DNA of 32,000 nucleotides from Candidatus Methanoperedenaceae archaeon (GTDB lineage Archaea > Halobacteriota > Methanosarcinia > Methanosarcinales > Methanoperedenaceae): NCBI GenBank assembly GCA_963753595.1, contig CAVWCX010000009.1:18013-50012 (forward strand), in the 5' to 3' direction. Positions 9,409-22,317 of this stretch are shown here, one piece after another (the first letter of the stretch is position 1; each line of letters opens with the position of its first letter). Made by a program: the position numbers and the translations under genes. The notes below the pieces were generated by a model. The model was not told the DNA's origin. It made no database searches and saw only the letters and a program-made list of their open reading frames with translations.

Positions 9409-10389
9409 ATGAAAATGAATGCGCAGATCAAAGCTGAACTCATTTCTATCGGGGCAATTGATATTGATCCATCTATTCTTGGAAGGCTGACCATCCCAAC
9501 GGCAGGACCGGGGGCCGGAGGCAAGGCTTTTTTCTTCAATTCCGGCGGTCATCGTGTGCGGCTCGTGGTGGATGAAGGCTCACCTCTACGCGCAATTAAA
9601 GATAATGGCGAGATCGTGATCATAAAAGGCGGGAAAGAGTTCGTGAGAGGAACGATCGAGGAAGAACTCATACACTGCCCGGAGCAGGCATATATTACAA
9701 TGAGTGAGCGCTGCATTTATGATTGCAAATTCTGCCCTGTCCCGAAACTGAATGGAAAGGTCAAATCTTCAGAAGAATTGCTGGCGCTTGTCGAAGAAGC
9801 ATTCAAATTGGGGAAGATGAAAGGAATTTCTATAACATCAGGGGTCGAAGTGTCACCTGAAAAAGAAGTTGAACGCGCTGCCGATTTGGTCAGTAAATTG
9901 AAGAAATACAATGTCACCATAGGTGTTTCTGTCTATCCAACAAAGGACTCATCCCGCATCCTGAAAGAAGCGGGAGCAAGTGAAGTCAAATACAATGTTG
10001 AGACCATGGACAGGGAACTTTATGAGAAATACTGCAAGAAGCCACCTCTTGATTTTACGCTCGAATGCCTGAAGGATGCTGTCAAAATATTCGGAAAAAA
10101 CAATGTTTTTACCAACTTCATTGCGGGGCTGGGAGAGACCGATGAAACAATTGAAACGAATTATGAGATACTTGCGAAAATGGGCGTGATCCCGATAATA
10201 CGCGCCGTTGGCGTGCATCCCCTGCGCTTTGGTGAACTGGAAGCAGAGAGACCAACAGCCCAAAGGCTGCTAAAACTTGCGAAAATGTCACGCAGGATAC
10301 TTGATAAATACGGGCTTGATGCAAGTAAGGCAAAGACCATGTGCCTGCCGTGTACGGGGTGTGACCTGAATCCGCATGTGGATTTATGA
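9409..10389 (+). CDS. Radical SAM domain protein (biotin/lipoyl-synthase-like core), specific function unknown
   Basis: CIYDCKFCPV is the CxxxCxxC radical SAM cluster motif at aa ~103-110. TIM-barrel-like alternation follows. The C-terminus has an extra Cys cluster (CLPCTGC). Confidence 0.8.
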   Translation: MKMNAQIKAELISIGAIDIDPSILGRLTIPTAGPGAGGKAFFFNSGGHRVRLVVDEGSPLRAIKDNGEIVIIKGGKEFVRGTIEEELIHCPEQAYITMSERCIYDCKFCPVPKLNGKVKSSEELLALVEEAFKLGKMKGISITSGVEVSPEKEVERAADLVSKLKKYNVTIGVSVYPTKDSSRILKEAGASEVKYNVETMDRELYEKYCKKPPLDFTLECLKDAVKIFGKNNVFTNFIAGLGETDETIETNYEILAKMGVIPIIRAVGVHPLRFGELEAERPTAQRLLKLAKMSRRILDKYGLDASKAKTMCLPCTGCDLNPHVDL

Positions 10390-10550
10390 TTGAGGAAAGA
10401 ATTCCTATATTTCAAGAAGTTTTGTTATGAGCATCTCTGGGCGCCAGGCTGTTACTATGGTTCTGTAGGGAATGGGATGTTGTAAGTAAATACATTGAAA
10501 CACAGGATTTACATCAATCCAAAAACGCTAGCTATAGGCCGTGTAATTAA
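10390..10550 (+). mobile_element. Remnant of the 3' end of an IS200/IS605-family tnpA (Y1 transposase), frameshifted and 5'-truncated
   Basis: Translation from 10390 gives LRKEFLYFKKFCYEHLWAPGCYYGSVGNGML*. After a -1 shift it continues DVVSKYIETQDLHQSKN.... The pattern (LRxEFP..., LW.P.Y..GSVG, ...YIExQ) is the conserved C-terminus of IS200-type TnpA as I remember it. An imperfect hairpin (ggggtttgtg...cagagcccc, 10554-10584) follows, as at IS200/IS605 ends. Confidence 0.55.
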
Positions 10551-10591
10551 GTCTGGGGTTTGTGACTGCTACGACAGAGCCCCATAATAAT

Positions 10592-13500
10592 TCATTCTAC
10601 CCAAGATTGTTGGTTAATGGCATCCATTAGGGAGAATATAACTGGACGGAGTTCTCCAACAACAAGATCAAAACCAACCTCTGGGCATTCTGAGTCACTT
10701 ACTTGACGATTTGCCTCCTCGATGCACCAAATTCTAAGTTCTGATGGCATGCCGCGTGAAGCACCAATCAACTTTGGAAATGTTGCCTTTTCAGATGGAT
10801 TTGAGTTATTCTGCAAATGCTTTATCAGCATTGCTGAGAAATTATCATCTGCCTGAAGTCTACGGAGGATGGGACGAGTGATTAACTGTGAATAATTTCG
10901 GTGAATGCGCTCATAATTTGATAACAATTTTAAGAGGGCCTTAAATATAAACTCACTTGAACTCTTTCGACAAATAAGTTGAAAATATGTAGCAAAAGAT
11001 AAGGGTCGTTTCTGTCTTGTTACAATTTCAAAAATGCTATTTAATTCTTCACTTTCTGGCCAACCTTCACAGAGTGTAAGAATTAATTTCTCATCAGCAT
11101 GATCTTTTGGACTTCCAGACATTAAGTGTGTTAATACATCACAATCCCCACCAAAATTCTTACTTATTAGTTCAGCTGCAACTACTGATTCATTCCATGA
11201 GAAATCGTTTCGATGATCTCCAATACAAAGTATTTTTAAGCAATATTCGAGAAGGATAGGACTTTTAGGACGTACTCTACTGAGAAAACGCAATATATTA
11301 GGTTTCGCATTTTGTTCGTTCCTACTTTCCAAAAAATGAAGCATTTCATTGCGAGGAGATGGGTATTCATCAGCAAACTGGCAAAGTTCGTCCCAAAGAT
11401 TTAATATGTCATAATTTGGCTTATTAAGCATTTTCCACAGTTCTTTACCGAAAGCAACCTTGATATCATCCCAATTTTGTAGAATATATCTCAATAGAGG
11501 AACATTTGGTGAAAGACTATTAATAATTGAAATAGCACAAGGTTCACTTTTTCCGATTGCCTCTTCAAAATTAATCATTACATCTAAGCGGCCTAATATT
11601 GCCAAACCACAGAACGCAGCTTGTTGGCGTTCCTCGTGGTCAAATCCATAACATCCAATACTTTGTGATAAGTATTCTATCGCAGACTTCATATCCTGAT
11701 TCAATGCTTTTAATCGCATATGATAGCTAATTGAGGCTTGCGTTTTAATCTCTTTATCTGGCTCATAATCATAAAGCCTTAATAAAGACATTGCGAACGT
11801 ATCATCAACACTCTTATCCTTCAAGTATGCTACAATAACTCCACGAAGCTGAGTGGGCAGGGGGCATGCAATTTCAATGATTTTTTTTCGCAACTCTTCA
11901 TCATTTCCAAAGGTCCACGCCACAGCCGCATAACTACCATCTCGTTTTAAAACCTCTTGTTTTGCAAAATCTTTTACACGCAGATCTGATGAATAGCATG
12001 CTATTAAACGGGCTATTATAGTATCTCTTTGCAATCCTTTTAGATCAGATAGTATGCTCAAGACAATATCGACAACTTCGGTATCACCCTGTGTATTTCC
12101 CAGAGTTTGTAGGCCAATCATTACGAAATCATGACGTGCGCATTCAGGATCTCGAAGTAATTCAATAAGCCTGCTCCGGCATATACTCTTATTTTCGATA
12201 ATCTGCGGAAGCAGATGTCCAATCCGAGATGCCTCAGATGCCGAACCGAATGCGAATTTAGTTAATCTATCGGCAACCTCAATATCTTGCATTCCCCAAC
12301 CTTCTATTAGCGCTCCTGCTGGCCAATGAGGAATAGATGAGTTGAGTGATGATAGTAGTTTTTGTTTAGCCTTTGGTGTGCGTCCTACTAATGCAGCCAT
12401 AGCAACTGCAGGTTCATGAAATTCTTGTTTTGGTAGCCATTCTTCGATTGCCATGATGATCCTAGGATGGTCTTTGAAGTTCTTGGCCAATAAACTCCAA
12501 GGATCATGATAGTGCATTGAAATAAATGGATATTTCTCGTTCTTAATCTGATTGATGCAGAACTCAGCTACTTCTTCATCTTGTGCATAATCATCAAGTA
12601 AAATTCTGAGAGCATATTCTCTATCTAGATTGATTTTATCTCGTCCAGCTTCCTTTAAAGCATCGAAGCAAGCTTTCTTAGTTTCGGATGAGTTTGGCCA
12701 TCCCCTCATAAGTGCCGATGCTACATCATTTTTCCACTGATAATCTAGGTTTGTACTCCATGAACCAATATGAATCAATTCTTTCCAATCCTCTTCAGTT
12801 TGGCAATTTCTTTGTATCCTACCTAAGATTGCGAGTAAACGCAATTCTGGACTCATTGAGCGTCGAGCTACTTCCAAAATATGTTCGATATTTTCATGAT
12901 TTGGCCAACCCCGCAACAAAGCTTCAATTGCCGCAGCCCTTGTTTTTGATTCTACAGCATTTTGGGCAATCCAAGAAATACGATTACCAATTTCTGAATC
13001 ACTAGCTGCAAGATCAGCTATAGCACTTGCTGCAGCTCGTTTGTTATCAGATTCTTCATCGTGTATACCTTTCCACAAGCATTCGATAACTTCAGCATCT
13101 CTTGGCCATTTAGCCATAGCACTGAAGATTCCCTCTCGCCATCTTGCTCTGCAAGGAAACCAATTTTTAAGCTTTAACTTAACCAACTCTTTTACTTTTA
13201 TAGAACGCAATCCATTCAGGATTTGCTTAAGGAGAAGCTCACGTTGAGGCATCCATGACCCCAGTTCAACTTGTTCGAATGACTCTCGTGCAAGTTCTCT
13301 GACAATGCCGACCGGGCAATTAAATTCGCCGAAAGCAGTTTCACATAGCAAGAGATCGATAGTGTAGCAGTCTATTGGATTAACAATCCTCCTTTTTTTT
13401 CGAATACATTCAATAAACTGTTTAGTGTCTTCTGCACGTTTGGTGATGTAGAATAATACTAGAATGATTTGACGCCACTGTGGGCTGGCACAGTGCATCT

Positions 13501-15535
13501 CTACGATTGATAATTGTTCGGCTAAAGGTAAACGAGATAGATGATATGCTGACAAATATTCCTGAAATACACGGTGAAAGAAACCAACATCTTTAGGAGA
13601 CCGTTTCACAAGGATACCTATAAAGTTTTCACCTACCTCTAAAATTTTTCGGGTAAATTGATAAGCTTCACGTTGCTCAAAGCCTAATCCAAAATCATCA
13701 TCTTTAATAAATTTCTCTACAATAATTATTGCTTCATTTTGATCTATCGATCCTTCTCCAAACTTCTCTTGGATTTGATAAGCTAAAAGTCCAAAAATTT
13801 TCTTAATATCGTCATCATTAAGTTCGATTGAATCGGTTGTTAGAGATGCAGCCCTTCTTCTTCTTTGCGGATGTGTAGAGATTAGATGCTCTATAAGTGA
13901 TTCGTAGGCTTTGAATCGACTTTGTGGAAGACTAGCATTATTAAATCTATGATAAATAAGTAGGCAAAGAAGTAGAGGTATTTTCGATAATTCTCGAAGG
14001 TCTGGTGACATTTGCAGTTCATCGAAAAAAACTTCGCTTTCAGCATCGGCTTGTCGTATAACTTCAGACTCTTCAATTGTCGAACTTTGATTTAGGTTCT
14101 TTATTCTATAGATGAACCAAATCTTCGATAACTGCTTTTGCTGCTCTTCAGAAAAATCACTTAGCTCTCCTAATTTCCATCCTATTTCTTGCATTCCAAG
14201 GCGATCAAAACCATGTGGTCTACTTGTTATTATTGCTGGAACATCACGTTGCTTTATGAAAACCTTAAGCTGGTCCAAGGCTATTTTTGCAGCTGACTCA
14301 TTTGTCCACTCATCCAGACCATCCACGAGTAATAAGAGTCTCTCATCTTCTAAGGCTTGTTCAAATAAGGGCCAAAGCCGCTCTTCATTCCAATTTTTTA
14401 ACCAATTGTGAACTAACTCACTCAGTGAACAAGTAGGAGTTGTTTGGTTTGAGATTAATTTTGTCCATAAAGCAAACGGCACCCAAACAGGAAGAAATAT
14501 GCCCCATTTTTGTGAGAGCAAAGTCAATCGTGGCGATTCATGTAATAGGTCGATAGCTATGAAACGCAATAGTGTACTTTTTCCACTTCCTGGTCCTCCA
14601 AGAATAATGTTGTGTTTTGCTATTGATAGCCACTTTTCAACCGATTGTCTTTTCTGATACGTAGAAGTTGATCGTGGCACTATAATTTTTTGTCTACTGC
14701 TTTCAAAAGCCTCATTTTCAAATTGGCTGCTCCCTAATTTGTCCTCATACTTTTCAGTTTCTGGCCTTCCTTCAGAATAAGGAGGTGTAATTAATCGTCG
14801 TTCGTAAATGTCAGGAATAACATATCTCTCCTCCAATGGCAAAACGTTGAGTTCACTCGTCGCGGTTATTGGCAAGCCAGGATCAAAAGTATTAAATACG
14901 TTCCTATAAAACGTTGCACACTTTTTTCGAAAATCAATAACATCTTTAATTTCTAATCTATTTTTCAATTCTTTTGCTTGCACTTCACCACAAAATGCGC
15001 TTACCCACGCTCTACCGAAAAAATCATCAACAAGTTTTGGAAGGTCTTTCAATTTTATGGATAGTTGATGACTATCCCAGGAAACCACTGTTATTCCCTT
15101 TTCTTTAAGTAGAGCTTGTTGTGATTCTAGTTCCTCCGCTCTATCTGTTGGAACTAGGCTTTCTTTTGTACATAAAATGAAAGTGTCTGTCTTGCCGACC
15201 CATTCTCCCTCTAAAAATTTCAAAACTGCGTTTCTGATCTTTGTGGGTCCAAAATCATTAACACGCTTGCATTGGTAGACCCAATATTTATCAGCGAACT
15301 TTTTTCGTGCGTAGATGTCGATACCCTCTTGCTTTTGACCACGTATACCATAAAGCTGACAGTGTTCAACGTTGGCTTCTAATCGTGCCATGCGTAGGCA
15401 CAATCTCTCAAAATCTTCCCAACTAAGCTCACCAAATGGAAGCTCTTGCTTTCGAGTTTCTACAGGAGGATTAACCTGAGATAGGGGGGGAGTTTCAAGC
15501 CATGATGGAATAGAAGTGTCAATTTGTGTGCTCAT
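10592..15535 (-). CDS. STAND NTPase: N-terminal Mrr-like PD-(D/E)xK nuclease, central NACHT, ~1150-aa C-terminal HEAT-like repeat region (NLR/Avs-like)
   Basis: Uninterrupted 1647-aa ORF. Nuclease core: WEDFERLCLRMARLE, GIDIYA (D73), YQCK (Q88/K90). NACHT: ILGGPGSGKSTLL (Walker A, aa 311-323), LLLVDGLDEW (Walker B, aa 401-410), IITSRP (aa 435-440). The C-terminal helical repeats have HEAT-like signatures (KRAAASAIADLA, TRAAAIEALLRGWPN, PELRLLAILGRI). Confidence 0.85.
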   Translation of the reverse strand: MSTQIDTSIPSWLETPPLSQVNPPVETRKQELPFGELSWEDFERLCLRMARLEANVEHCQLYGIRGQKQEGIDIYARKKFADKYWVYQCKRVNDFGPTKIRNAVLKFLEGEWVGKTDTFILCTKESLVPTDRAEELESQQALLKEKGITVVSWDSHQLSIKLKDLPKLVDDFFGRAWVSAFCGEVQAKELKNRLEIKDVIDFRKKCATFYRNVFNTFDPGLPITATSELNVLPLEERYVIPDIYERRLITPPYSEGRPETEKYEDKLGSSQFENEAFESSRQKIIVPRSTSTYQKRQSVEKWLSIAKHNIILGGPGSGKSTLLRFIAIDLLHESPRLTLLSQKWGIFLPVWVPFALWTKLISNQTTPTCSLSELVHNWLKNWNEERLWPLFEQALEDERLLLLVDGLDEWTNESAAKIALDQLKVFIKQRDVPAIITSRPHGFDRLGMQEIGWKLGELSDFSEEQQKQLSKIWFIYRIKNLNQSSTIEESEVIRQADAESEVFFDELQMSPDLRELSKIPLLLCLLIYHRFNNASLPQSRFKAYESLIEHLISTHPQRRRRAASLTTDSIELNDDDIKKIFGLLAYQIQEKFGEGSIDQNEAIIIVEKFIKDDDFGLGFEQREAYQFTRKILEVGENFIGILVKRSPKDVGFFHRVFQEYLSAYHLSRLPLAEQLSIVEMHCASPQWRQIILVLFYITKRAEDTKQFIECIRKKRRIVNPIDCYTIDLLLCETAFGEFNCPVGIVRELARESFEQVELGSWMPQRELLLKQILNGLRSIKVKELVKLKLKNWFPCRARWREGIFSAMAKWPRDAEVIECLWKGIHDEESDNKRAAASAIADLAASDSEIGNRISWIAQNAVESKTRAAAIEALLRGWPNHENIEHILEVARRSMSPELRLLAILGRIQRNCQTEEDWKELIHIGSWSTNLDYQWKNDVASALMRGWPNSSETKKACFDALKEAGRDKINLDREYALRILLDDYAQDEEVAEFCINQIKNEKYPFISMHYHDPWSLLAKNFKDHPRIIMAIEEWLPKQEFHEPAVAMAALVGRTPKAKQKLLSSLNSSIPHWPAGALIEGWGMQDIEVADRLTKFAFGSASEASRIGHLLPQIIENKSICRSRLIELLRDPECARHDFVMIGLQTLGNTQGDTEVVDIVLSILSDLKGLQRDTIIARLIACYSSDLRVKDFAKQEVLKRDGSYAAVAWTFGNDEELRKKIIEIACPLPTQLRGVIVAYLKDKSVDDTFAMSLLRLYDYEPDKEIKTQASISYHMRLKALNQDMKSAIEYLSQSIGCYGFDHEERQQAAFCGLAILGRLDVMINFEEAIGKSEPCAISIINSLSPNVPLLRYILQNWDDIKVAFGKELWKMLNKPNYDILNLWDELCQFADEYPSPRNEMLHFLESRNEQNAKPNILRFLSRVRPKSPILLEYCLKILCIGDHRNDFSWNESVVAAELISKNFGGDCDVLTHLMSGSPKDHADEKLILTLCEGWPESEELNSIFEIVTRQKRPLSFATYFQLICRKSSSEFIFKALLKLLSNYERIHRNYSQLITRPILRRLQADDNFSAMLIKHLQNNSNPSEKATFPKLIGASRGMPSELRIWCIEEANRQVSDSECPEVGFDLVVGELRPVIFSLMDAINQQSWVE

Positions 15536-15912
15536 TTTGTGGTTATCTATTTGTGAAAAGATGGATTTATTTCGGTTAATGATTTATGTTATCTCCTGTT
15601 ATATTACTTTTCGTTTATCCTCCCAAGTTAATGTAAATTCTTTTCCTATCCATTCATTCAGAACCGAAGAAGGACAAAAATAGAATATACTATTAACAAT
15701 TCTCCGTTACTGCGGGTAAACCGAACTCTCATGCACCCAAAAGGTGATAGAAAGCCAAAATAACTTTCATATAGTGTAAAATTGGTGCATATGATGGGTA
15801 TTGATTGATACATGAATTATATTTAGGATTTTCGATGAATCTAAATAGTATTGAGTTATGCTAAACTGTGGATAATTTCGAAGCAAGCTCAGTTAAAGAA
15901 GGTGAAGTAAAA

Positions 15913-16152
15913 ATGTATCGTTTCCTTGTAGTGATTGAAAAGGCAAATAAGAACTATTCGGCATATTCACCGGATTTACCGGGATGTGTGGCTACAGGCG
16001 CCACCCGTGAAGAAGCTGAGAATAATATGTATGAAGCTATTGAAATGCATATACAGGGATTACTGGAGGATAAATTTCCTATTCCAGAATCAAAGTCATT
16101 TGCGGAGTACATAGCTGTTGCTGAAAAATCAGGTGTGGAGCAAACGGCTTAA
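15913..16152 (+). CDS. HicB-like / UPF0150 family protein (antitoxin-type fold, no DNA-binding extension)
   Basis: MYRFLVVIEKANKNYSAYSPDLPGCVATGATREEAENNMYEAIEMHIQG is the typical HicB N-domain/UPF0150 pattern. ATG 15913 is preceded by aggtga. The track start at 15868 (GTG) is less likely. Confidence 0.7.
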   Translation: MYRFLVVIEKANKNYSAYSPDLPGCVATGATREEAENNMYEAIEMHIQGLLEDKFPIPESKSFAEYIAVAEKSGVEQTA

Positions 16153-16205: not shown

Positions 16206-16700
16206 ATGGATTCTGAAAAAATGGAACCGCAGATGAACGCAGATGAACGCAGATTAAATGTTTCGTATCAAGAAAAATCCAGGCTATTCAGCAGTTTAAG
16301 GATTGAAGAGCTAAGAATACCACACATAGAGCTTGATTTGATACAGGCGCAACTGGAAGAAAATAAACCATACGAAGCCTGCGGTGTTCTCATTGGAACT
16401 ATTGATGGAATGACCGCGCATGTCGAAAAAGCGCTTCCCATAACAAATGTTAAGCGGACGCATAGGAGTTTTGAGCTTGACCCGAAAGAGCATTATAATG
16501 CCTGGAATGAGGCCGAAAAGAACGGCAAGGAAATAGTCGGAGTTTATCACACACATCCTGCCTCTCGCGCTGATCCCTCTCATTGGGACGAGGAGACAAT
16601 GGAAAATGCCCCCTCAGTGTGGCTTATCGCAGGCGCTGATGGGATGAGGGCGTATGTGTGGGAGAATGGTTTGAAAACGGTAAAAATAACAGAGACATAG
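16206..16700 (+). CDS. JAMM/MPN+ metalloprotease (Mov34 family)
   Basis: EACGVLIG supplies the catalytic Glu. HTHPASRADPSHWD is an exact HxHx7SxxD JAMM zinc motif. The ~40-aa N-terminal extension contains a 10-bp tandem repeat, so the true start is uncertain (16206, 16221 or 16233). Confidence 0.8.
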   Translation: MDSEKMEPQMNADERRLNVSYQEKSRLFSSLRIEELRIPHIELDLIQAQLEENKPYEACGVLIGTIDGMTAHVEKALPITNVKRTHRSFELDPKEHYNAWNEAEKNGKEIVGVYHTHPASRADPSHWDEETMENAPSVWLIAGADGMRAYVWENGLKTVKITET

Positions 16701-16743
16701 GCGTTCTCCATAGAGGGAAACTATTTGAATTAATTTCCCTATA
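16634..16743. repeat. Direct repeat copy A (3' end of the JAMM gene plus its downstream hairpin)
   Basis: It aligns with 17382-17503. The core 16645-16743 vs 17405-17503 has about 11 differences per 100 nt by hand alignment. It includes the hairpin agggaaa-N13-tttccct (16714-16740). Confidence 0.85.
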
Positions 16744-17171
16744 GATAATACCATGATAAAACGGGACATGTGGATAGGGATAATAAAAGATTTCTCCGAA
16801 TAGGGCTTTCATCACAAATGACTGTAACTCTTTTTGAATGTCCTCTTGCATTTACAATATGATTCTATTTTTCAAACTTCATACGAATAGTTGTTCTGCA
16901 AGCCTCATAAAGATGTATTTATTTTTTTTCTGTTCATCTGAGTCAGGTTTATCAATTTCTTTTCCAGAGAAAACTGCTTTTATTGATTTCGTACTTTTTT
17001 CGGGAGTATCTAACATGAATCCTCAATATATGTCACTTATTTTTAATTCAACAATGTTGAAAAAGATATTAAAGATTCATGCGTCAAAAAATTAATATAA
17101 TAATTATTATTATCCTCTATTGACTTCTGTTTTTATGCTTCCCAGATAGGAAATAAAGGAATTTTGTGGGC

Positions 17172-17376
17172 TTTATTTCATCGCCTTTTCCAGCCCTTCC
17201 ATCGCGATCTGGTTTAGCTCTCTTGCCCTTTCCTCTGTTTTTCCCTCAGAGAAAATCCGCACTTTTGGCTCTGTCCCGCTGGCTCTGACGGGATTTTTTG
17301 TATCAGCCTATCAAGTATCGCATCTGTATTCGTGCCTACGGGCAGTGTCTTTGCATCCTTTATCTGGTGATATTTC
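17172..17376 (-). pseudogene. 3'-terminal fragment of a phosphohexomutase paralogue (internally deleted)
   Basis: The minus strand reads ...VRASGTEPKVRIFSEGKTEERARELNQIAMEGLEKAMK*, against VRASGTEPKVRIFSEGKTEDIAERLNKVAMEGLERAMVA* in the intact gene at 18978. nt 17311-17375 match 19185-19249 at 63/65. About 85 nt of the intact gene are missing between the two blocks. Confidence 0.85.
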
Positions 17377-17381
17377 GGTCT

Positions 17382-17503
17382 GGCTGATGGCATGTGTGGT
17401 GGGCAGAGGGCGTATGTGTGGGAGAATGGTTTGAAATCGGTTAAAAATAATAGAGGTATAGCGTTCTCCCTGGAGGGAAACAATTTGGATTAGTTTCCCT
17501 ATA
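17382..17503. repeat. Direct repeat copy B (orphan copy of the JAMM gene 3' end plus hairpin)
   Basis: See copy A. It encodes ...RAYVWENGLKSVKNNRG with no upstream gene body. It is joined directly to the mutase fragment on its left and ends 12 nt before the ATPase stop codon on its right. Confidence 0.85.
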
Positions 17504-17515
17504 ACCTTTTTTCTA

Positions 17516-18943
17516 TCATGGCCGCAGGGATTTGAAATCCCTTAAATCAAAAGCCAGATAACCTTTTTCCCTGAGCTTTTCTTTGCCTTCAATACTTTTC
17601 CCGATGATCCCAAAATATTCCACTCTGTCTTTGACTTCCCACAGAACAAATTTTGATTTCTTTTTTAAGATATCCAGAATTTTCTGGGCTTCACTGGACT
17701 TTAGCTCCTGCCACTTGCACTCAATAAAAAGACTTTCCTTTGAGGTTTCATTCAGGGCAAGAAGGTCGATTTCCACTGCTTTTTTTCCATCCTCGCCAGG
17801 AAAACTGCCCCACCATCTGCCTATTTTATCAAATCTGAATGGAAGAGAGCCTGCATAATTTCGTTTTACACAAAAATCTTTTGATATGTTCTCGAAAGCT
17901 CCTCCTACAAATGCCCCATAATTCTGTGAGAATATGTTTTTTAATTCATCCTCTCTCCCCTGCTCGTAGTAGGATTCATAGCGTTTAATAAATGCGAACC
18001 AGAATCTCAGAAAATTATCATTCAATCTGTATATCCCAAGTCTCGATTTTCGGGGATCTTCAGTGATCGGTGTTTCTCTTCGAACAAGCTCATATTCATT
18101 TCGCAGGGTGTCAAGATGTCTTGAGGCTGTTCCACTTTTCCCCTCAAATATATTTGCTATTTCACCAACAGTGGTCTTGCCGGAAGCAATGGCTTCAAGT
18201 ATCGAAAAGTAGATTTTGTATTCCCCGCCGAACTCGCTTATCAAAACAGATTTTCCTTCATCTTTCAAAACAGGCATTCTCTGGTCGAAAAACATAGCAT
18301 TCATGGCATTTTCGAAATCAAGTGTTTTGAATCGGTCTATATATTCATAATATTTCGGCACGCCGCCAAAAACTGCATAGAACTTGATCATTTCCGAAAT
18401 ATCCTTAATGCCAATATCAGAAAGCATCTGCATTACCGTGCTTATGTCCAGAGGAGGAAGTTTCATCATAATATCGGCGCGACCGTATAGAGGGTAAGAA
18501 TAATCACCAAGTATTTTTTTCATCATGGAAAAACTTGAACCGCTTACCAGAACGGATACATTTTTCGCTTTATGTTTATACTCATCGATCAATTTCTGGA
18601 AATCTGAGTAGATGCTCTTTTCCATATAATAAAAATTCTGGAACTCATCAAAAAAAACATATTTTTTTGTATCAAATAGATACCTAAGCAAGTCTTGTAC
18701 ACTCGTGAACTTTGGTATTTTTTCGCTTTGCGAAAGCTCATCAAGGAATAAATCCACGGTTTTATCCTTCGGCACGAAAACATAAGCATACTCTTTACCT
18801 GCCAAGAACTCCTGGACAAGTCTGGTTTTACCAATCCTGCGCCGCCCGTAGATGACTATGAACTTAAAACCCCCGGAGGATGTGAGTTTGTCCAGGAGAG
18901 AGAGTTCTTCCAGGCGGTCGTAGAATTTGAAATCAGTATACAT
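17516..18943 (-). CDS. Archaeal AAA+ ATPase (Arch_ATPase-type P-loop) with wHTH and a C-terminal DUF234 PD-(D/E)xK-like domain
   Basis: IVIYGRRRIGKTRLV is Walker A and YVFFDEFQ is Walker B. A wHTH-like segment follows (GKTTVGEIANIFEGKSGTASRHLDTLRNEYELV). The C-terminus VEIDLLAL...LFIECKW gives a D...ExK nuclease-like motif. Confidence 0.8.
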   Translation of the reverse strand: MYTDFKFYDRLEELSLLDKLTSSGGFKFIVIYGRRRIGKTRLVQEFLAGKEYAYVFVPKDKTVDLFLDELSQSEKIPKFTSVQDLLRYLFDTKKYVFFDEFQNFYYMEKSIYSDFQKLIDEYKHKAKNVSVLVSGSSFSMMKKILGDYSYPLYGRADIMMKLPPLDISTVMQMLSDIGIKDISEMIKFYAVFGGVPKYYEYIDRFKTLDFENAMNAMFFDQRMPVLKDEGKSVLISEFGGEYKIYFSILEAIASGKTTVGEIANIFEGKSGTASRHLDTLRNEYELVRRETPITEDPRKSRLGIYRLNDNFLRFWFAFIKRYESYYEQGREDELKNIFSQNYGAFVGGAFENISKDFCVKRNYAGSLPFRFDKIGRWWGSFPGEDGKKAVEIDLLALNETSKESLFIECKWQELKSSEAQKILDILKKKSKFVLWEVKDRVEYFGIIGKSIEGKEKLREKGYLAFDLRDFKSLRP

Positions 18944-18977: not shown

Positions 18978-20381
18978 TTATGCTACCATCGCCCTCTCCA
19001 ACCCCTCCATCGCGACCTTATTCAACCTCTCCGCAATATCTTCTGTCTTTCCTTCTGAAAAAATCCTCACCTTTGGTTCTGTACCGCTTGCCCTCACAAG
19101 GAACCAGCCGTCTGCGTAATCCACGCGCACACCATCCATATCAGAGATCCTGTCATAATCTTTTGGTATCTCGGACTTTAACCTCTCAAGTATCGCATCT
19201 GTATTCGTACCTGCGGGCAGTGTCTTTGCATCCTTTATCTGGTGATATTTAGGATAAGTTGCAACGAGTTCTGAAAAAGTCATTTTTTCCTTCGATAAGA
19301 TCCCTGCCATAACTCCGGCAAGCATCGGTCCCTCGCGGCTCCATTCGATCAGCACTGAGCCATGCTCTTCAAGGCCAACCTGCGCGCCGCATAAGAGTTT
19401 TGCCTGCGCCAGGTACGGCTCGCCAACAGGTGTAAAGATCACTTCGGCGCCAAGGCTTCCGGCGACATCTTTTATGAGATTTGAGAATGCGATCGTCACA
19501 GCGATCTTTTTATGTTTATCTTTACATTGCCTCAGTAAATGGTCGGCTAATATTGCAGCAGTTACATCTCCCTGTACGAATTTCCCATTCTCATCCACAA
19601 ATGCGGTCCTGTCGCCATCACCATCATGTGCTACTCCCATATCAGCGCCTTCCTCTACCACAAGTTTCTTGAGTTTTTCAAGATTTGCATCTGTGGGTTC
19701 AGGATTTCTTTCCCTGAACATGCCGTCATATTTACAATTGAATCTTACCACTTCAAAACCCATTGCTTCAAGCGTTTCCGGTGTCACAGTTGATGCCGAT
19801 CCACCCCCGCCATCGACCACAATTTTCATTGGCGCTACCGGGAACATTTTTTTGACATACTGGATAATATGGGCGCGATACCTGTCGCTTGCCCCTGTGT
19901 CATTCAATCGTTTCCCTTTTTTTGCATGAAGTTTTAAGTCCCCAAAATATATTTTCTCAAGAGCAAGGTCTTCTTCAGGTGAAAAACCCATGCCGATTTT
20001 ATTTAAACATTTCATGCCATTATATTCAGGAGGATTATGCGATGCCGTTATCATTACACCCGCATCAGCCTGCCTTCCCACTTCCAGGGATAGCGTGTTC
20101 GGGGTAATGATACCCAGAGTTAGCGCATTGCAACCCTGTTCAATTATCCCTTCGATGAGTGCTTCTTCAAGCATGGGTGACGAGATCCTCGGGTCTTTTC
20201 CTATTGCTATTGTTTTCCCGGCGCCCAGATAATCGGCAAGAGCCGCGCCTGTACGTTTTGCTTTTTCGTCCCCCATCCCTTCATTGACAACACCACGGAA
20301 CCCGAATGTTCCGAATAATTTCTTAAGTTTACGGATCTTTTTATATTCATCAAATTTCGAAGTAAAATTTTCGCATGACAT
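18978..20381 (-). CDS. Alpha-D-phosphohexomutase (phosphoglucosamine mutase / phosphomannomutase family)
   Basis: ITASHNPPEYNGMK is the catalytic phosphoserine loop, GVAHDGDGDR is the metal-binding loop, and RASGTEPKVR is the phosphate-binding loop. Confidence 0.9.
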   Translation of the reverse strand: MSCENFTSKFDEYKKIRKLKKLFGTFGFRGVVNEGMGDEKAKRTGAALADYLGAGKTIAIGKDPRISSPMLEEALIEGIIEQGCNALTLGIITPNTLSLEVGRQADAGVMITASHNPPEYNGMKCLNKIGMGFSPEEDLALEKIYFGDLKLHAKKGKRLNDTGASDRYRAHIIQYVKKMFPVAPMKIVVDGGGGSASTVTPETLEAMGFEVVRFNCKYDGMFRERNPEPTDANLEKLKKLVVEEGADMGVAHDGDGDRTAFVDENGKFVQGDVTAAILADHLLRQCKDKHKKIAVTIAFSNLIKDVAGSLGAEVIFTPVGEPYLAQAKLLCGAQVGLEEHGSVLIEWSREGPMLAGVMAGILSKEKMTFSELVATYPKYHQIKDAKTLPAGTNTDAILERLKSEIPKDYDRISDMDGVRVDYADGWFLVRASGTEPKVRIFSEGKTEDIAERLNKVAMEGLERAMVA

Positions 20382-20479
20382 GCATTCGAATTTGTTTTGA
20401 ATATATTAAATACTTTGATAATTTAATTAGGTAATAACTCTGGTTAGTTATTATCATAAAATACATAACAAGAATAATT

Positions 20480-21115
20480 ATGAACGAAATACAAAATAAT
20501 ATAAATAATATTAAAAAAATTATCGATTCCAATAGGGATATTTCAATTCTTGCAGTTACAAAAACAAGAACCTTGGATGAAATAAATCTTGCAATTGATG
20601 GAGGGATATTAAACATAGGCGAGAACTATGTGGAAGAGGCTTATGAAAAATATCCATATATAACTTCAGTTAATGTAAAAAAACATTTCATCGGGCATCT
20701 ACAAAGTAATAAAGCTAAAAGAGCTGTTGAAATATTTGATGTAATTCAAACCATTGATTCAATAAAACTCCTGGAAAAGATCGATAGCTTAGGCAAGAAA
20801 ATAGATGTTATGTTCCAGGTAAATACTTCTTCGGATTCTAATTATCATGGAATTTATTTTGACGAATTTGATGATTTTTACAAAAATGTCCTGGAATTAC
20901 AACTTAAAAATGTGAATATTACAGGCCTTATGACCATTGCATCAAAGGATGATCCCAGGACTTGTTTTAAAAGACTTTTTAATATTAAACAAAAAACAAA
21001 ACTTGATGTATTGTCTATGGGAATGAGTCATGATTATGAAATAGCAATTGAAGAAGGCGCGACAATGATCAGGTTAGGAACTAAAATATTTGGAAATCGA
21101 AAAATCAATAAATAA
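20480..21115 (+). CDS. yggS: YggS/PLPBP-family pyridoxal-phosphate homeostasis protein
   Basis: ILAVTKTRT carries the PLP lysine. Also GILNIGENYVEE, HFIGHLQSNKAKRAV, LSMGMSHDYEIAIEEGATMIRLGTKIFG. The gene is very AT-rich compared with its neighbours. Confidence 0.8.
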   Translation: MNEIQNNINNIKKIIDSNRDISILAVTKTRTLDEINLAIDGGILNIGENYVEEAYEKYPYITSVNVKKHFIGHLQSNKAKRAVEIFDVIQTIDSIKLLEKIDSLGKKIDVMFQVNTSSDSNYHGIYFDEFDDFYKNVLELQLKNVNITGLMTIASKDDPRTCFKRLFNIKQKTKLDVLSMGMSHDYEIAIEEGATMIRLGTKIFGNRKINK

Positions 21116-21134
21116 TGAATAAATTAGATGTTTC

Positions 21135-21198
21135 AACAATGATTTTAACAATGACTTTTAACAATGATCTTTAACAATGATTTTTAACAATGCTCTTA
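21135..21198. repeat. Five tandem 12-13-bp direct repeats, consensus AACAATGAYYTTT
   Basis: aacaatgatttt / aacaatgactttt / aacaatgatcttt / aacaatgattttt / aacaatgctctta, read directly from the sequence. The array ends 15 nt before ATG 21214. Confidence 0.9.
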
Positions 21199-21213
21199 TA
21201 ATCTTTTGAGTAT

Positions 21214-22317
21214 ATGGAGAATTTGATGGAAGAGCTCTCAACGATAATAGAAAAAGTACAGTCATCGGAGGAACTTGATTTTGATGACGGTTTGCTTCTT
21301 ATGAGATCAAGGAACCTGTCAGTTATCGGTGCACTTGCGGACAATGTCCGGAAAAAAACAGTTGGCGACCAGGTCATGTTCGTTACGAACTGCCATATTA
21401 ATTATAGTAATGTATGCAACTCAAAATGTAAATTTTGCGCATATTTCAGGGAAGAAGGGCAAAACGGGGCTTTCACACTGGGTATTGATGAGATAATGGA
21501 AAAGGCAAAAAAAGCTAAAAATAGTGGGGCAACTGAACTCCATATCGTTGGATCACTTAATCCCAAACTGCCATTTGATTACTACGAGGATATCCTTATA
21601 AATATCCATGAAAAATATCCTGCCTTTTCTTTGAAAGCATATACCGCTGTTGAGATCGCACATCTATCCCGGATATCCGGGATGACTGTAAGGGAAGTAT
21701 TATTGCGCCTTAAGAAAGCCGGGCTCACAGGTCTTCCTGGAGGCGGGGGAGAGATATTCAATGAAAAAACAAGAAAACAGGTATGTCCTGATAAAATTAG
21801 CGGCGAAAAATGGCTTGAAGTCATGGAAACTGCACACGGGCTGGGAATAAAAAGCAATGCTACGATGCTTTACGGTCATATCGAGACCCATGAGGACATT
21901 GTAGATCATATCCTGAGATTAAGGGAATTGCAGAAAAAAACACACGGGTTCCAGGCATTCATACCATTAAGATTCCATCCCGACAATACTTATCTTTCGA
22001 AAAACGGGATCGTGACAGAAGGTCCAACGGGATTTGATGACCTTAAAACGATCGCTGTAGCGCGTCTTTTATTGAATGGACATATCAATAACATAAAAAG
22101 TTACTGGGTAATGCTGGGCGAAAAAATGTCACAGATCGCCCTTTCCTATGGCGCTAACGATATCGACGGCACGGTCATGGAAGAGCGCATCACTCATGCA
22201 GCAGGAGGCGCTGCGCCTGAATATATGCCAAAGGACAGGCTCATTTATTTGATCAGGAATGCGGGGAGGATACCGGTTGAGAGGACTTCCAATTATGAAA
22301 TTATCAGGGAGTATTAG
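21214..22317 (+). CDS. Radical SAM enzyme of the MqnC/MqnE (futalosine-pathway menaquinone biosynthesis) / CofH-like family
   Basis: HINYSNVCNSKCKFCAY is the CxxxCxxC motif. Also GATELHIVGSLNP, LPGGGGEIF, TMLYGHIETHEDIVDHILRLRELQ, GANDIDGTVMEERITHAAG. I cannot separate MqnC from MqnE by eye. Confidence 0.7.
   Translation: MENLMEELSTIIEKVQSSEELDFDDGLLLMRSRNLSVIGALADNVRKKTVGDQVMFVTNCHINYSNVCNSKCKFCAYFREEGQNGAFTLGIDEIMEKAKKAKNSGATELHIVGSLNPKLPFDYYEDILINIHEKYPAFSLKAYTAVEIAHLSRISGMTVREVLLRLKKAGLTGLPGGGGEIFNEKTRKQVCPDKISGEKWLEVMETAHGLGIKSNATMLYGHIETHEDIVDHILRLRELQKKTHGFQAFIPLRFHPDNTYLSKNGIVTEGPTGFDDLKTIAVARLLLNGHINNIKSYWVMLGEKMSQIALSYGANDIDGTVMEERITHAAGGAAPEYMPKDRLIYLIRNAGRIPVERTSNYEIIREY

Follow-up and report, generated by a model that had tools for sequence, protein, structure and literature searches.

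The stretch of Candidatus Methanoperedenaceae DNA analysed here (32,000 nt, positions 18,013 to 50,012 of contig CAVWCX010000009.1; hereafter the window) carries a gene of 1647 codons whose product combines an N-terminal Mrr-type nuclease domain, a NACHT module and a long helical solenoid (Table 1). This protein is probably a stand-alone immune sensor of the bacterial NACHT (bNACHT) type, similar to the NOD-like receptors (NLR) of animals, which was acquired horizontally and occupies a variable hotspot of the Methanoperedens chromosome. By analogy with characterised systems, its function is most likely defence, exerted by a DNase that would be activated through ligand-triggered oligomerisation. 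NLR-like sensors of the STAND (signal transduction ATPases with numerous domains) class form a main class of prokaryotic immunity and those that have been tested come, to our knowledge, almost all from Enterobacteria. Here, an uncultivated methane oxidiser is found to hold an intact, selected and horizontally moving gene of the Mrr-NACHT-HEAT type, in a slot that swaps its cargo between strains of the same sample.

Domain architecture of the 1647-residue protein

The gene starts with an ATG and its translation gives a single uninterrupted open reading frame (ORF), as reported in a preliminary description of the window in which all quoted motifs were also correctly placed, i.e. WEDFERLCL (aa 39-47), GIDIYA with D73 and YQCK with K90 for the nuclease, and GGPGSGKST (aa 313-321), LLLVDGLDEW (aa 401-410) and IITSRP (aa 435-440) for the NACHT domain. 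Homologues of the whole protein number more than 1000 at E<=1e-3 and are mostly full length, and comparison with the 82%-identical protein encoded at locus L098 (P0002) gives an overall ratio of nonsynonymous to synonymous substitution rates (dN/dS) of 0.23; the ORF is therefore no chance frame and the gene is maintained by purifying selection. By domain, the same comparison gives values of 0.15 for the nuclease, 0.12 for the nucleotide-binding domain and 0.23-0.31 for the sensor, with a maximum of 0.50 in the linker segment (aa 161-298). Residue conservation, which was measured over three sets of homologues (117, 86 and 30 sequences), peaks in the nuclease and in the nucleotide-binding domain and is moderately lower in the sensor, with a mean identity of 0.39-0.56 per block of 50 aa and few gaps. 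Pfam was also run on 30 diverse homologues (Mrr_cat being counted at E<=1e-3), and AlphaFold2 (AF2) models were computed in two pieces, aa 1-760 and aa 701-1647, and compared by Foldseek with the PDB. Profiles, conservation and confident models agree on the three-part layout first proposed, namely a PD-(D/E)xK effector of the Mrr type, a NACHT STAND NTPase and a sensor made of helical repeats.

The central NACHT NTPase, also recognised from the start, scores 33.7 bits with the Pfam NACHT profile (PF05729; aa 310-474) against a cut-off of 26.7 bits, NPHP3_N is likewise over its cut-off, and NACHT matches all 30 homologues. Residues G316, G318, K319, D405, G406, D408, E409 and R439 are invariant among the sets of 86 and 30 homologues. 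Taken as motifs, Walker A (G313..G316-x-G318-K319-S320), Walker B (D405-G-x-D408-E409) and R439-P440 of sensor-1, as well as the winged-helix histidine H654, reach at least 96% conservation or are invariant; H654 (in the motif FFHRxFQEYL) is among the invariant positions. The model of aa 1-760, with a predicted local distance difference test score (pLDDT) of 85 and a predicted template modelling score (pTM) of 0.83, contains a complete NACHT module beyond a disordered linker, in which nucleotide-binding domain, helical domain 1, winged-helix domain and helical domain 2 adopt a fold resembling that of animal NLRs. Indeed, the top PDB matches are NLRC4 (4kxf, 4e-12), NLRP3 and NOD2, and the Mrr-STAND protein Avs4 (8dgf) is matched at 1e-6 over 699 columns.

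At the N-terminus, an invariant motif, a modelled core and the Mrr_cat matches of homologues support a nuclease domain of the Mrr-type PD-(D/E)xK class, of which D...QxK is the Mrr-type motif variant. The candidate catalytic residues E43, D73, Q88 and K90 are conserved at 97-100% in all three sets of homologues, in agreement with the residues D73 and K90 that had been proposed. The predicted core has the order alpha-beta-beta-beta-alpha-beta (helix 39-53, strands 55-62, 71-77 and 84-90, helix 97-109 and strand 116-123) and carries E43 on the first helix, D73 on strand 71-77 and Q88-C-K90 on strand 84-90. Mrr_cat matches 14 of the 30 homologues (best E 3e-8), and an effector-level match of the nuclease region to LmuA was obtained with PADLOC (E 7e-5). 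The Mrr-like core initially described thus stands through homologue profiles, motif conservation and the model, but the query itself stays under the Pfam cut-off for Mrr_cat (see below). The proline-rich leader that precedes the core (IPSWLETPP.S.V.PPV.TR.QELPFGEL) is near-invariant throughout the family, from archaea to Proteobacteria, and might be an autoinhibitory or docking peptide. In the linker that follows the core, pLDDT falls below 50 at aa 252-290 and mean identity is 0.19 at aa 251-300.

The C-terminal part was modelled with high confidence (pLDDT 92.2 and pTM 0.92 for aa 701-1647) as an all-alpha solenoid, whose PDB matches are generic HEAT/ARM solenoids only (FANCD2, CAND1, karyopherins, mTOR) with TM scores of 0.14-0.23 and include no solved Avs sensor. 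By sequence, Pfam HEAT_2 is not significant in the query (E 0.93) and matches 13 of the 30 homologues; a PDB search with the family profile returned designed alphaRep HEAT-like repeats as sole match (aa 812-870), and a search with the single query sequence returned no match. Together with its helical and winged-helix subdomains, the NACHT module extends to ca. aa 760, which leaves ca. 890 aa for the repeat region and not ca. 1150 aa as first estimated; the helical solenoid itself holds, on the model and the homologues, and its length, which had been called unusual, is typical of its own family. Within it, GW motifs at aa 876-877, 945-946, 1079-1080 and 1491-1492 are invariant.

The presence of HEAT solenoids such as FANCD2 and condensin CAP-G among the fold matches, together with an Mrr-type effector bearing the D-QxK motif, could also suit a restriction-like enzyme directed at nucleic acids, in which the Mrr domain or the solenoid would read modified or foreign DNA and the NTPase would serve as regulator or motor, in a type IV or McrBC-like manner. 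This is quite improbable, however, since Pfam detects no DNA-recognition domain of the Mrr_N type, NACHT modules are established molecular switches and not translocases, and the fold matches in question are generic and of low TM score. The type IV restriction enzyme Mrr proper was likewise rejected, the protein having an architecture of nuclease, NACHT and solenoid instead. The bNACHT proteins have this layout, a prokaryotic NACHT module lying between effector and sensor domains.

Table 1. Positions of the gene, its domains, the slot, other window features and the loci compared (the second column gives window positions; aa, amino acids)
Feature	Window positions	Strand	Basis or remark
Whole gene, Mrr-like nuclease/NACHT/HEAT-solenoid, 1647 aa	10592-15535	-	Stop codon 10592-10594; identical protein recorded (P0001)
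Proline-rich leader IPSWLETPP..PPV.TR.QELPFGEL, aa 1-35	15431-15535	-	Many positions at least 90% conserved (86 and 30 homologues); partly ordered in AF2
Mrr-type PD-(D/E)xK nuclease core, aa 36-160	15056-15430	-	Motif conservation, homologue profiles, AF2 core
Candidate catalytic residues E43; D73; Q88; K90	15407-15409; 15317-15319; 15272-15274; 15266-15268	-	
Linker, aa 161-298 (helical 161-250, then poorly conserved, predicted disordered 251-298)	14642-15055	-	AF2, conservation
NACHT nucleotide-binding domain, aa 299-462	14150-14641	-	Pfam and invariant residues
Walker A; Walker B DGLDE; sensor-1 R439	14573-14599; within 14306-14335; 14219-14221	-	
Helical domain 1, winged-helix domain and helical domain 2, aa 463-760	13256-14149	-	AF2, Foldseek, conservation
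Winged-helix H654	13574-13576	-	
All-alpha HEAT-class solenoid, ca. 50 helices, presumed sensor, aa 761-1647	10595-13255	-	AF2, Foldseek, homologue profiles
Variable slot (cassette), 5.1 kb, NACHT gene only	10573-15704		Between radical SAM (9409-10389) and HicB-like gene
Locus L100	Homology stops at 10567, resumes at 15706		Same sample as the window's contig, ca. 90% nucleotide identity, fully syntenic; slot with DUF6978 and DUF1829 (slot cargo of L100 at 11362-12606)
Locus L095	Break points 10572 and 15705		Close Methanoperedens relative; slot with a 254-aa gene (slot cargo of L095 at 11456-12220)
Locus L097			More distant Methanoperedens; slot empty, JAB after radical SAM with 184 bp between
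Locus L098	Shares 10583-15653 only		Carries P0002; 86.7% nucleotide identity; between hemB-like and hemA-like genes
Slot-edge motifs	10555-10567 (left); 15708-15721 (right)		Left GGGGTTTGTGACT; right (G/T)AC(T/C)GC(G/A)GGTAAAC
Spacer at the 3' end of the gene	10390-10591		
Non-coding sequence of ca. 180 bp	10390-10572		Downstream of radical SAM; copies in L095 at 2745-2918 and 10988-11173
HicB-like antitoxin gene	15868-16152	+	
625-bp insertion	16744-17368		Relative to L100
Direct repeats of ca. 136 bp	16608-16743; 17369-17503		JAB 3' end and downstream sequence
ORF of 85 aa	16838-17095		Inside the insertion
Degraded copy of PGM/PMM 3' end	17179-17378		Compared with 18987-19253, 73-94% identical
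DUF234/ATPase_2 gene	17516-18943	-	
Ala_racemase_N (YggS-like) gene	20480-21115	+	

Chromosomal slot and gene neighbourhood

On the radical SAM side, the gene is flanked by ordinary archaeal chromosome genes (deoxyhypusine synthase, glutamine synthetase, NrpR and radical SAM), and on the other side by HicB-like, JAB, DUF234 ATPase, PGM/PMM, CofH-like and cytochrome b genes. Proteins of Methanoperedens metagenome-assembled genomes match the radical SAM protein at 94-96% identity, which points to a Methanoperedens-like host and is in line with the methane-cycling archaeon that had been guessed from the sequence. Between these flanks lies a slot that contains other genes, or none, in three other Methanoperedens loci, one of which comes from the same sample (see L100, L095 and L097 in Table 1). 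The fourth locus compared, L098, has in common with the window the cassette only, which consists of the gene with ca. 120 bp upstream and 10 bp downstream, so that this 5-kb unit is found at two different chromosomal sites; no mobility gene occurs inside the shared cassette. The composition of the gene also departs from that of its surroundings, with a GC content of 0.386 and a GC content at third codon positions (GC3) of 0.289 versus 0.464 and 0.477 for the neighbouring radical SAM gene and a GC3 of 0.41-0.48 for most flanking genes, the direction being that noted in the preliminary description. Slot cargo that differs or is missing in close relatives, a copy at a second site and atypical GC3 strongly support that the NACHT gene is accessory and mobile within a variable chromosomal slot, as was first thought.

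Other features of the slot were also noted. The 254-aa gene found in L095 displays a faint CBS match and no PADLOC match, and the alternative cargo of L100 and L095 may correspond to unrecognised defence genes. Short motifs at both slot edges are shared by the window, L095 and L100 and are not found in L097; they may represent the ends of conserved flanks or recombination sites. When the cassette ends were searched for terminal repeats or duplicated target sites, these short motifs were all that was found; they are unconvincing as recombination sites. The HicB-like antitoxin gene next to the slot has no recognisable HicA partner and a GC3 of 0.305; it is part of the conserved flank and not of the cassette, being 98.5% identical in L095 and absent from L097.

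The gene acts alone, as suggested initially, since no neighbour recurs across the loci examined. All-against-all clustering of the ORFs located within 5 kb of the family gene at 77 loci from different species revealed no recurrent neighbour and hence no candidate for a conserved partner gene, the largest cluster (5 loci) being made of fragments or second copies of the family gene itself. Orthologues share no synteny, and relatives have toxin-antitoxin genes, integrases and known defence genes for neighbours. In ANME-1 archaea, they adjoin RadC/DUF6398, an MNT-type nucleotidyltransferase, PIN, HepT/MNT and an integrase, in a setting that differs each time. In Enterobacter hormaechei, a full-length member (WP_063863497.1, 1633 aa) is carried by the IncHI2A conjugative plasmid NZ_CP156945.1 (L101, 88997-109847), where its gene adjoins a CBASS phospholipase gene, two TIR-domain genes and insertion sequence (IS) elements; this protein offers a convenient culturable representative of the family.

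The same data bear on two functions other than immunity. In the first case, the protein would be a non-defence STAND regulator or scaffold, i.e. a housekeeping signalling NTPase or a protein with a degenerate nuclease domain; many STAND clades are indeed non-defence (PMC13581612) and the gene sits among chromosomal housekeeping genes. With invariant catalytic residues, an atypical composition, presence in some and absence from other close relatives, a copy at another site and orthologues devoid of synteny, this is very improbable. In the second case, the gene would be a selfish, addiction-like cassette, the loss or disturbance of which is toxic and whose 5-kb spread reflects its own mobility and not a benefit to the host. 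Its occurrence at two unrelated sites with boundaries hugging the gene, and the presence of the family on plasmids, would fit such a cassette, but neither an antitoxin partner nor a mobility gene travels with it, the HicB gene belonging to the flank, and the proposal is scarcely credible. 

Finally, several features of the window lie outside the cassette. An IS200/IS605 remnant had been described at the 3' end of the gene, but the spacer located there has no IS200/IS605 feature: six-frame Pfam searches gave no match, Rfam gave none in the whole window and the fold z-score is 0.32. Most of this spacer corresponds to a non-coding sequence of ca. 180 bp that occurs twice in L095, the second copy being inverted, 78% identical and located beside a MULE-like transposase gene; it may represent a small repeated element. 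The scarred region announced on the other side of the gene does exist: at 17179-17503, the 3' ends of PGM and JAB recur as degraded copies. Relative to L100, the window has here an insertion of 625 bp that is flanked by ca. 136-bp direct repeats and holds the degraded PGM/PMM copy and an 85-aa ORF with neither Pfam nor PADLOC match. Further on, the DUF234/ATPase_2 protein combines an ArsR-type helix-turn-helix with a PD-(D/E)xK-like C-terminus and is matched along its whole length by PDC-S27, a candidate defence family of PADLOC (E 1.9e-57). Its gene, in contrast to the NACHT gene, is syntenic in L097 and L100. The YggS-like gene, which is syntenic in L100, has the lowest GC of the window (0.289; GC3 0.231), and the region 20000-21500 has a GC of 0.32-0.34.

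Family distribution and the conserved sensor

Full-length homologues are colinear from end to end, with sizes of 1610-1680 aa and identities that range from 82% down to ca. 25%. The closest named ones belong to ANME-1 archaea (62-67% identity), followed by those of Methanothrix, Anaerolineales, Syntrophorhabdaceae, Cylindrospermum (55%), Methanobacterium congolense (45%) and Bacillus thuringiensis (43%), and further members occur in Nitrospira, Acidobacteriota, Planctomycetota, Myxococcota, Actinomycetota, Bacteroidota, Deinococcota, Verrucomicrobiota, one Paceibacterota genome and others. Overall, the family spans more than 20 bacterial phyla plus a few archaea. When one genome per species was scanned with a pattern, which gives a lower bound, at least 308 of 185,579 species genomes were found to hold a family member. 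The rarity and the restriction to ANME archaea implied by the preliminary description are thus not upheld, the same ca. 1650-aa protein being present in many bacterial phyla as well as in ANME-1, Methanothrix and Methanobacterium.

Members are also found on plasmids of culturable bacteria, i.e. Enterobacter hormaechei, Pantoea, Deinococcus and Bacillus thuringiensis, and a DNA-level search of 5,426 complete E. coli genomes found none. Members from culturable hosts include one of Pantoea agglomerans and the B. thuringiensis protein WP_098606231.1. In viral collections, 4 full-length matches were detected in 2.9 million IMG/VR contigs and none in the GenBank phage collection. The family is thus nearly absent from viral collections, and the link to Borg elements or Methanoperedens viruses put forward at first is pure speculation. 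The four IMG/VR contigs (L088/L091, L089 and L090), predicted as viral or prophage, carry full-length members that are 29-34% identical over the N-terminal 760 aa. In several bacterial genomes (L034, L041, L046, L085 and others), the gene is split into ORFs of ca. 900-970 aa and ca. 670 aa, which suggests frameshifted pseudogenes, and a few loci have a second full-length family copy within 5 kb.

An exhaustive HMMER search with the sensor only yielded 883 clusters (50%-identity level) at E<=1e-3, of which 434 at E<=1e-30. The best 150 matches all display the same ca. 1650-aa architecture or are colinear truncations of it, so that the sensor is not shared with other effectors, and effector swapping on the same sensor was rejected for these top 150 representatives.

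Conservation of the sensor across domains of life suggests that its target is either a viral fold of very wide conservation or a host factor, likewise conserved, that it would guard. The sensor keeps its colinearity and an identity of 25-55% over a range of hosts that includes Methanoperedens, ANME-1, Enterobacter, Bacillus, cyanobacteria and a bacterium of the candidate phyla radiation; we therefore tentatively suggest that the ca. 890-aa solenoid could be a cross-domain pattern-recognition receptor, either for one structural feature common to archaeal and bacterial tailed viruses or for a universal host factor. If so, bacterial members could reveal the trigger and give a first functional access to NLR-type immunity in archaea that cycle methane, possibly extending to action against the large extrachromosomal elements of these archaea.

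A sensor strictly of the guard type, with the same effector and switch and a solenoid that monitors a conserved host factor (a chaperone or a translation factor) altered upon infection, seems rather unlikely. Strong, colinear conservation in archaea and in more than 20 bacterial phyla would be easier to explain with a universal cellular partner, and there are precedents in bNACHT25, which senses infection via DnaJ (PMC12169576), and in Avs7, which incorporates EF-Tu (PMC13581612). The gene neighbourhood, however, points to no such partner in the 77 loci, and the HK97 capsid, the terminase and the portal are examples of conserved viral folds established to span archaeal and bacterial viruses as well.

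Proposed mechanism and relation to known systems

We propose the defence role itself, and a mechanism of autoinhibition, ligand-driven oligomerisation and activation of the DNase, by analogy with NLRC4, with Avs3, Avs4 and Avs7 and with bNACHT25 and bNACHT32. At rest, the protein would be a closed, ADP-bound monomer in which H654 and the folded-back solenoid hold the NACHT module and the nuclease inactive. The module would open once a ligand binds the HEAT solenoid; most likely this ligand comes from an invading virus or other mobile element, as one of its conserved proteins, or is a host factor that such an invader disturbs. ADP would be exchanged for ATP with the help of K319 (Walker A), D405, D408 and E409 (Walker B) and R439 (sensor-1). 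NACHT modules would then oligomerise and, by induced proximity, join the PD-(D/E)xK domains (E43, D73, Q88-x-K90) into active assemblies, which would cut DNA without sequence specificity and destroy invader DNA, host DNA or both (abortive infection).

Probable as it is, the immune-sensor reading has several points against it. The Mrr_cat score of the query (18.9 bits, aa 36-103) is under the 21-bit cut-off, and antiphage models (PADLOC 2023, NCBIfam 2026) match the effector or the P-loop only. Species genomes with a family member are few among those scanned, and no experimentally assayed member of the ca. 1650-aa family was found in the searched libraries and literature. In addition, the sensor is colinear and well conserved, not hypervariable, and occurs without effector swapping, which is less typical of receptors engaged in an arms race.

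The uniformity of the family across two domains of life, its cassette-like mobility and its culturable members make the question of the trigger experimentally approachable. Because the family is uniform and has plasmid members in culturable bacteria, a model host could serve to find the trigger, and the result could then be transferred to archaea.

Among known systems, Avs4 (EcAvs4, 8dgf) also unites an Mrr-type nuclease, a STAND NTPase and a long helical-repeat sensor in one protein of ca. 1500-1600 aa; its sensor binds the phage portal protein and the ensuing oligomerisation activates the nuclease. It differs by an NTPase of another STAND clade, the best fold matches here being the NACHT modules of animal NLRs. 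Conserved phage proteins are the ligands of many Avs families, which bind them with helical-repeat sensors before oligomerising (PMC13581612), and Lee et al. (2026) list 589 clades and 684 sensor clusters. Membership in Avs1-Avs5 was rejected, as the query matches no PADLOC Avs model; the E. hormaechei member matches Avs2 by its N-terminal effector only (aa 33-131, E 2e-5). Avs10/Erebus/bNACHT64 (NCBIfam EruA) is likewise an antiphage NACHT protein with a large C-terminal sensor, which senses the major capsid protein, but its NACHT domain is N-terminal, no Mrr domain is present and it belongs to clade 20. With EruA (NF058535), the query scores 17 bits and the E. hormaechei member 16, over the P-loop only and with a cut-off of 1000, and this assignment was also rejected.

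Closer in their effector are bNACHT25 and bNACHT32 of E. coli (clade 6), in which a PD-(D/E)xK DNase is fused N-terminally to a NACHT module. Their PD-(D/E)xK active site is needed for defence, and infection or expression of the trigger leads to DNA degradation (PMC12169576). A mutant of the NACHT-module histidine, winged-helix H506L, is constitutively active or hyperactive (PMC12169576; bioRxiv 10.1101/2022.07.19.500537), and the equivalent residue here is the invariant H654. Both proteins differ in size (ca. 750 aa) and in having a short NCH1 C-terminal domain instead of an 890-aa solenoid, and both sense infection via DnaJ. In a comparison with the first 399 aa of bNACHT25, hhalign (probability 82%, E 1e-5) aligns only 85 columns, around Walker A and B, and BLASTP finds the P-loop only, so that membership in this subfamily was rejected. 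Animal NLRs (NLRC4, NLRP3, NOD2), the best structural matches, have in common with the protein the NACHT module, including nucleotide-binding, helical and winged-helix subdomains and the conserved histidine; they differ by leucine-rich-repeat sensors, by CARD or PYD adaptor effectors with no fused nuclease, and by an identity of 13-16%.

In the literature searched, no paper naming NACHT together with Methanoperedens was found, and neither NACHT nor Avs occurs in the text of a 2026 paper on variable hotspots of ANME-1. The census of NACHT proteins by Kibby et al. catalogues archaeal NACHT-HEAT proteins with other effectors, e.g. in Methanosarcina, and lists in its clade 2 'REase+NACHT' or 'Mrr_cat+NACHT' proteins, for example those of Thalassomonas (WP_044834066.1), Hymenobacter (WP_157567192.1) and Kibdelosporangium (WP_125728006.1). 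These have the same domain order and coordinates as the protein described here, with Mrr/REase at ca. aa 17-133 and the NACHT module at ca. aa 235-737, and Hymenobacter and actinomycete members also appear in our family scan; judging by the listed layout, they are most likely the same family. None of these entries bears a bNACHT number, i.e. none was assayed, and the only protein of clade 2 with reported activity is bNACHT20, whose effector is calcineurin-like and not of the Mrr type found here. Descriptions of this architecture, of its likely mechanism and of NACHT proteins in archaea thus already exist, and the gene of the window adds to them an archaeal member and no new principle.

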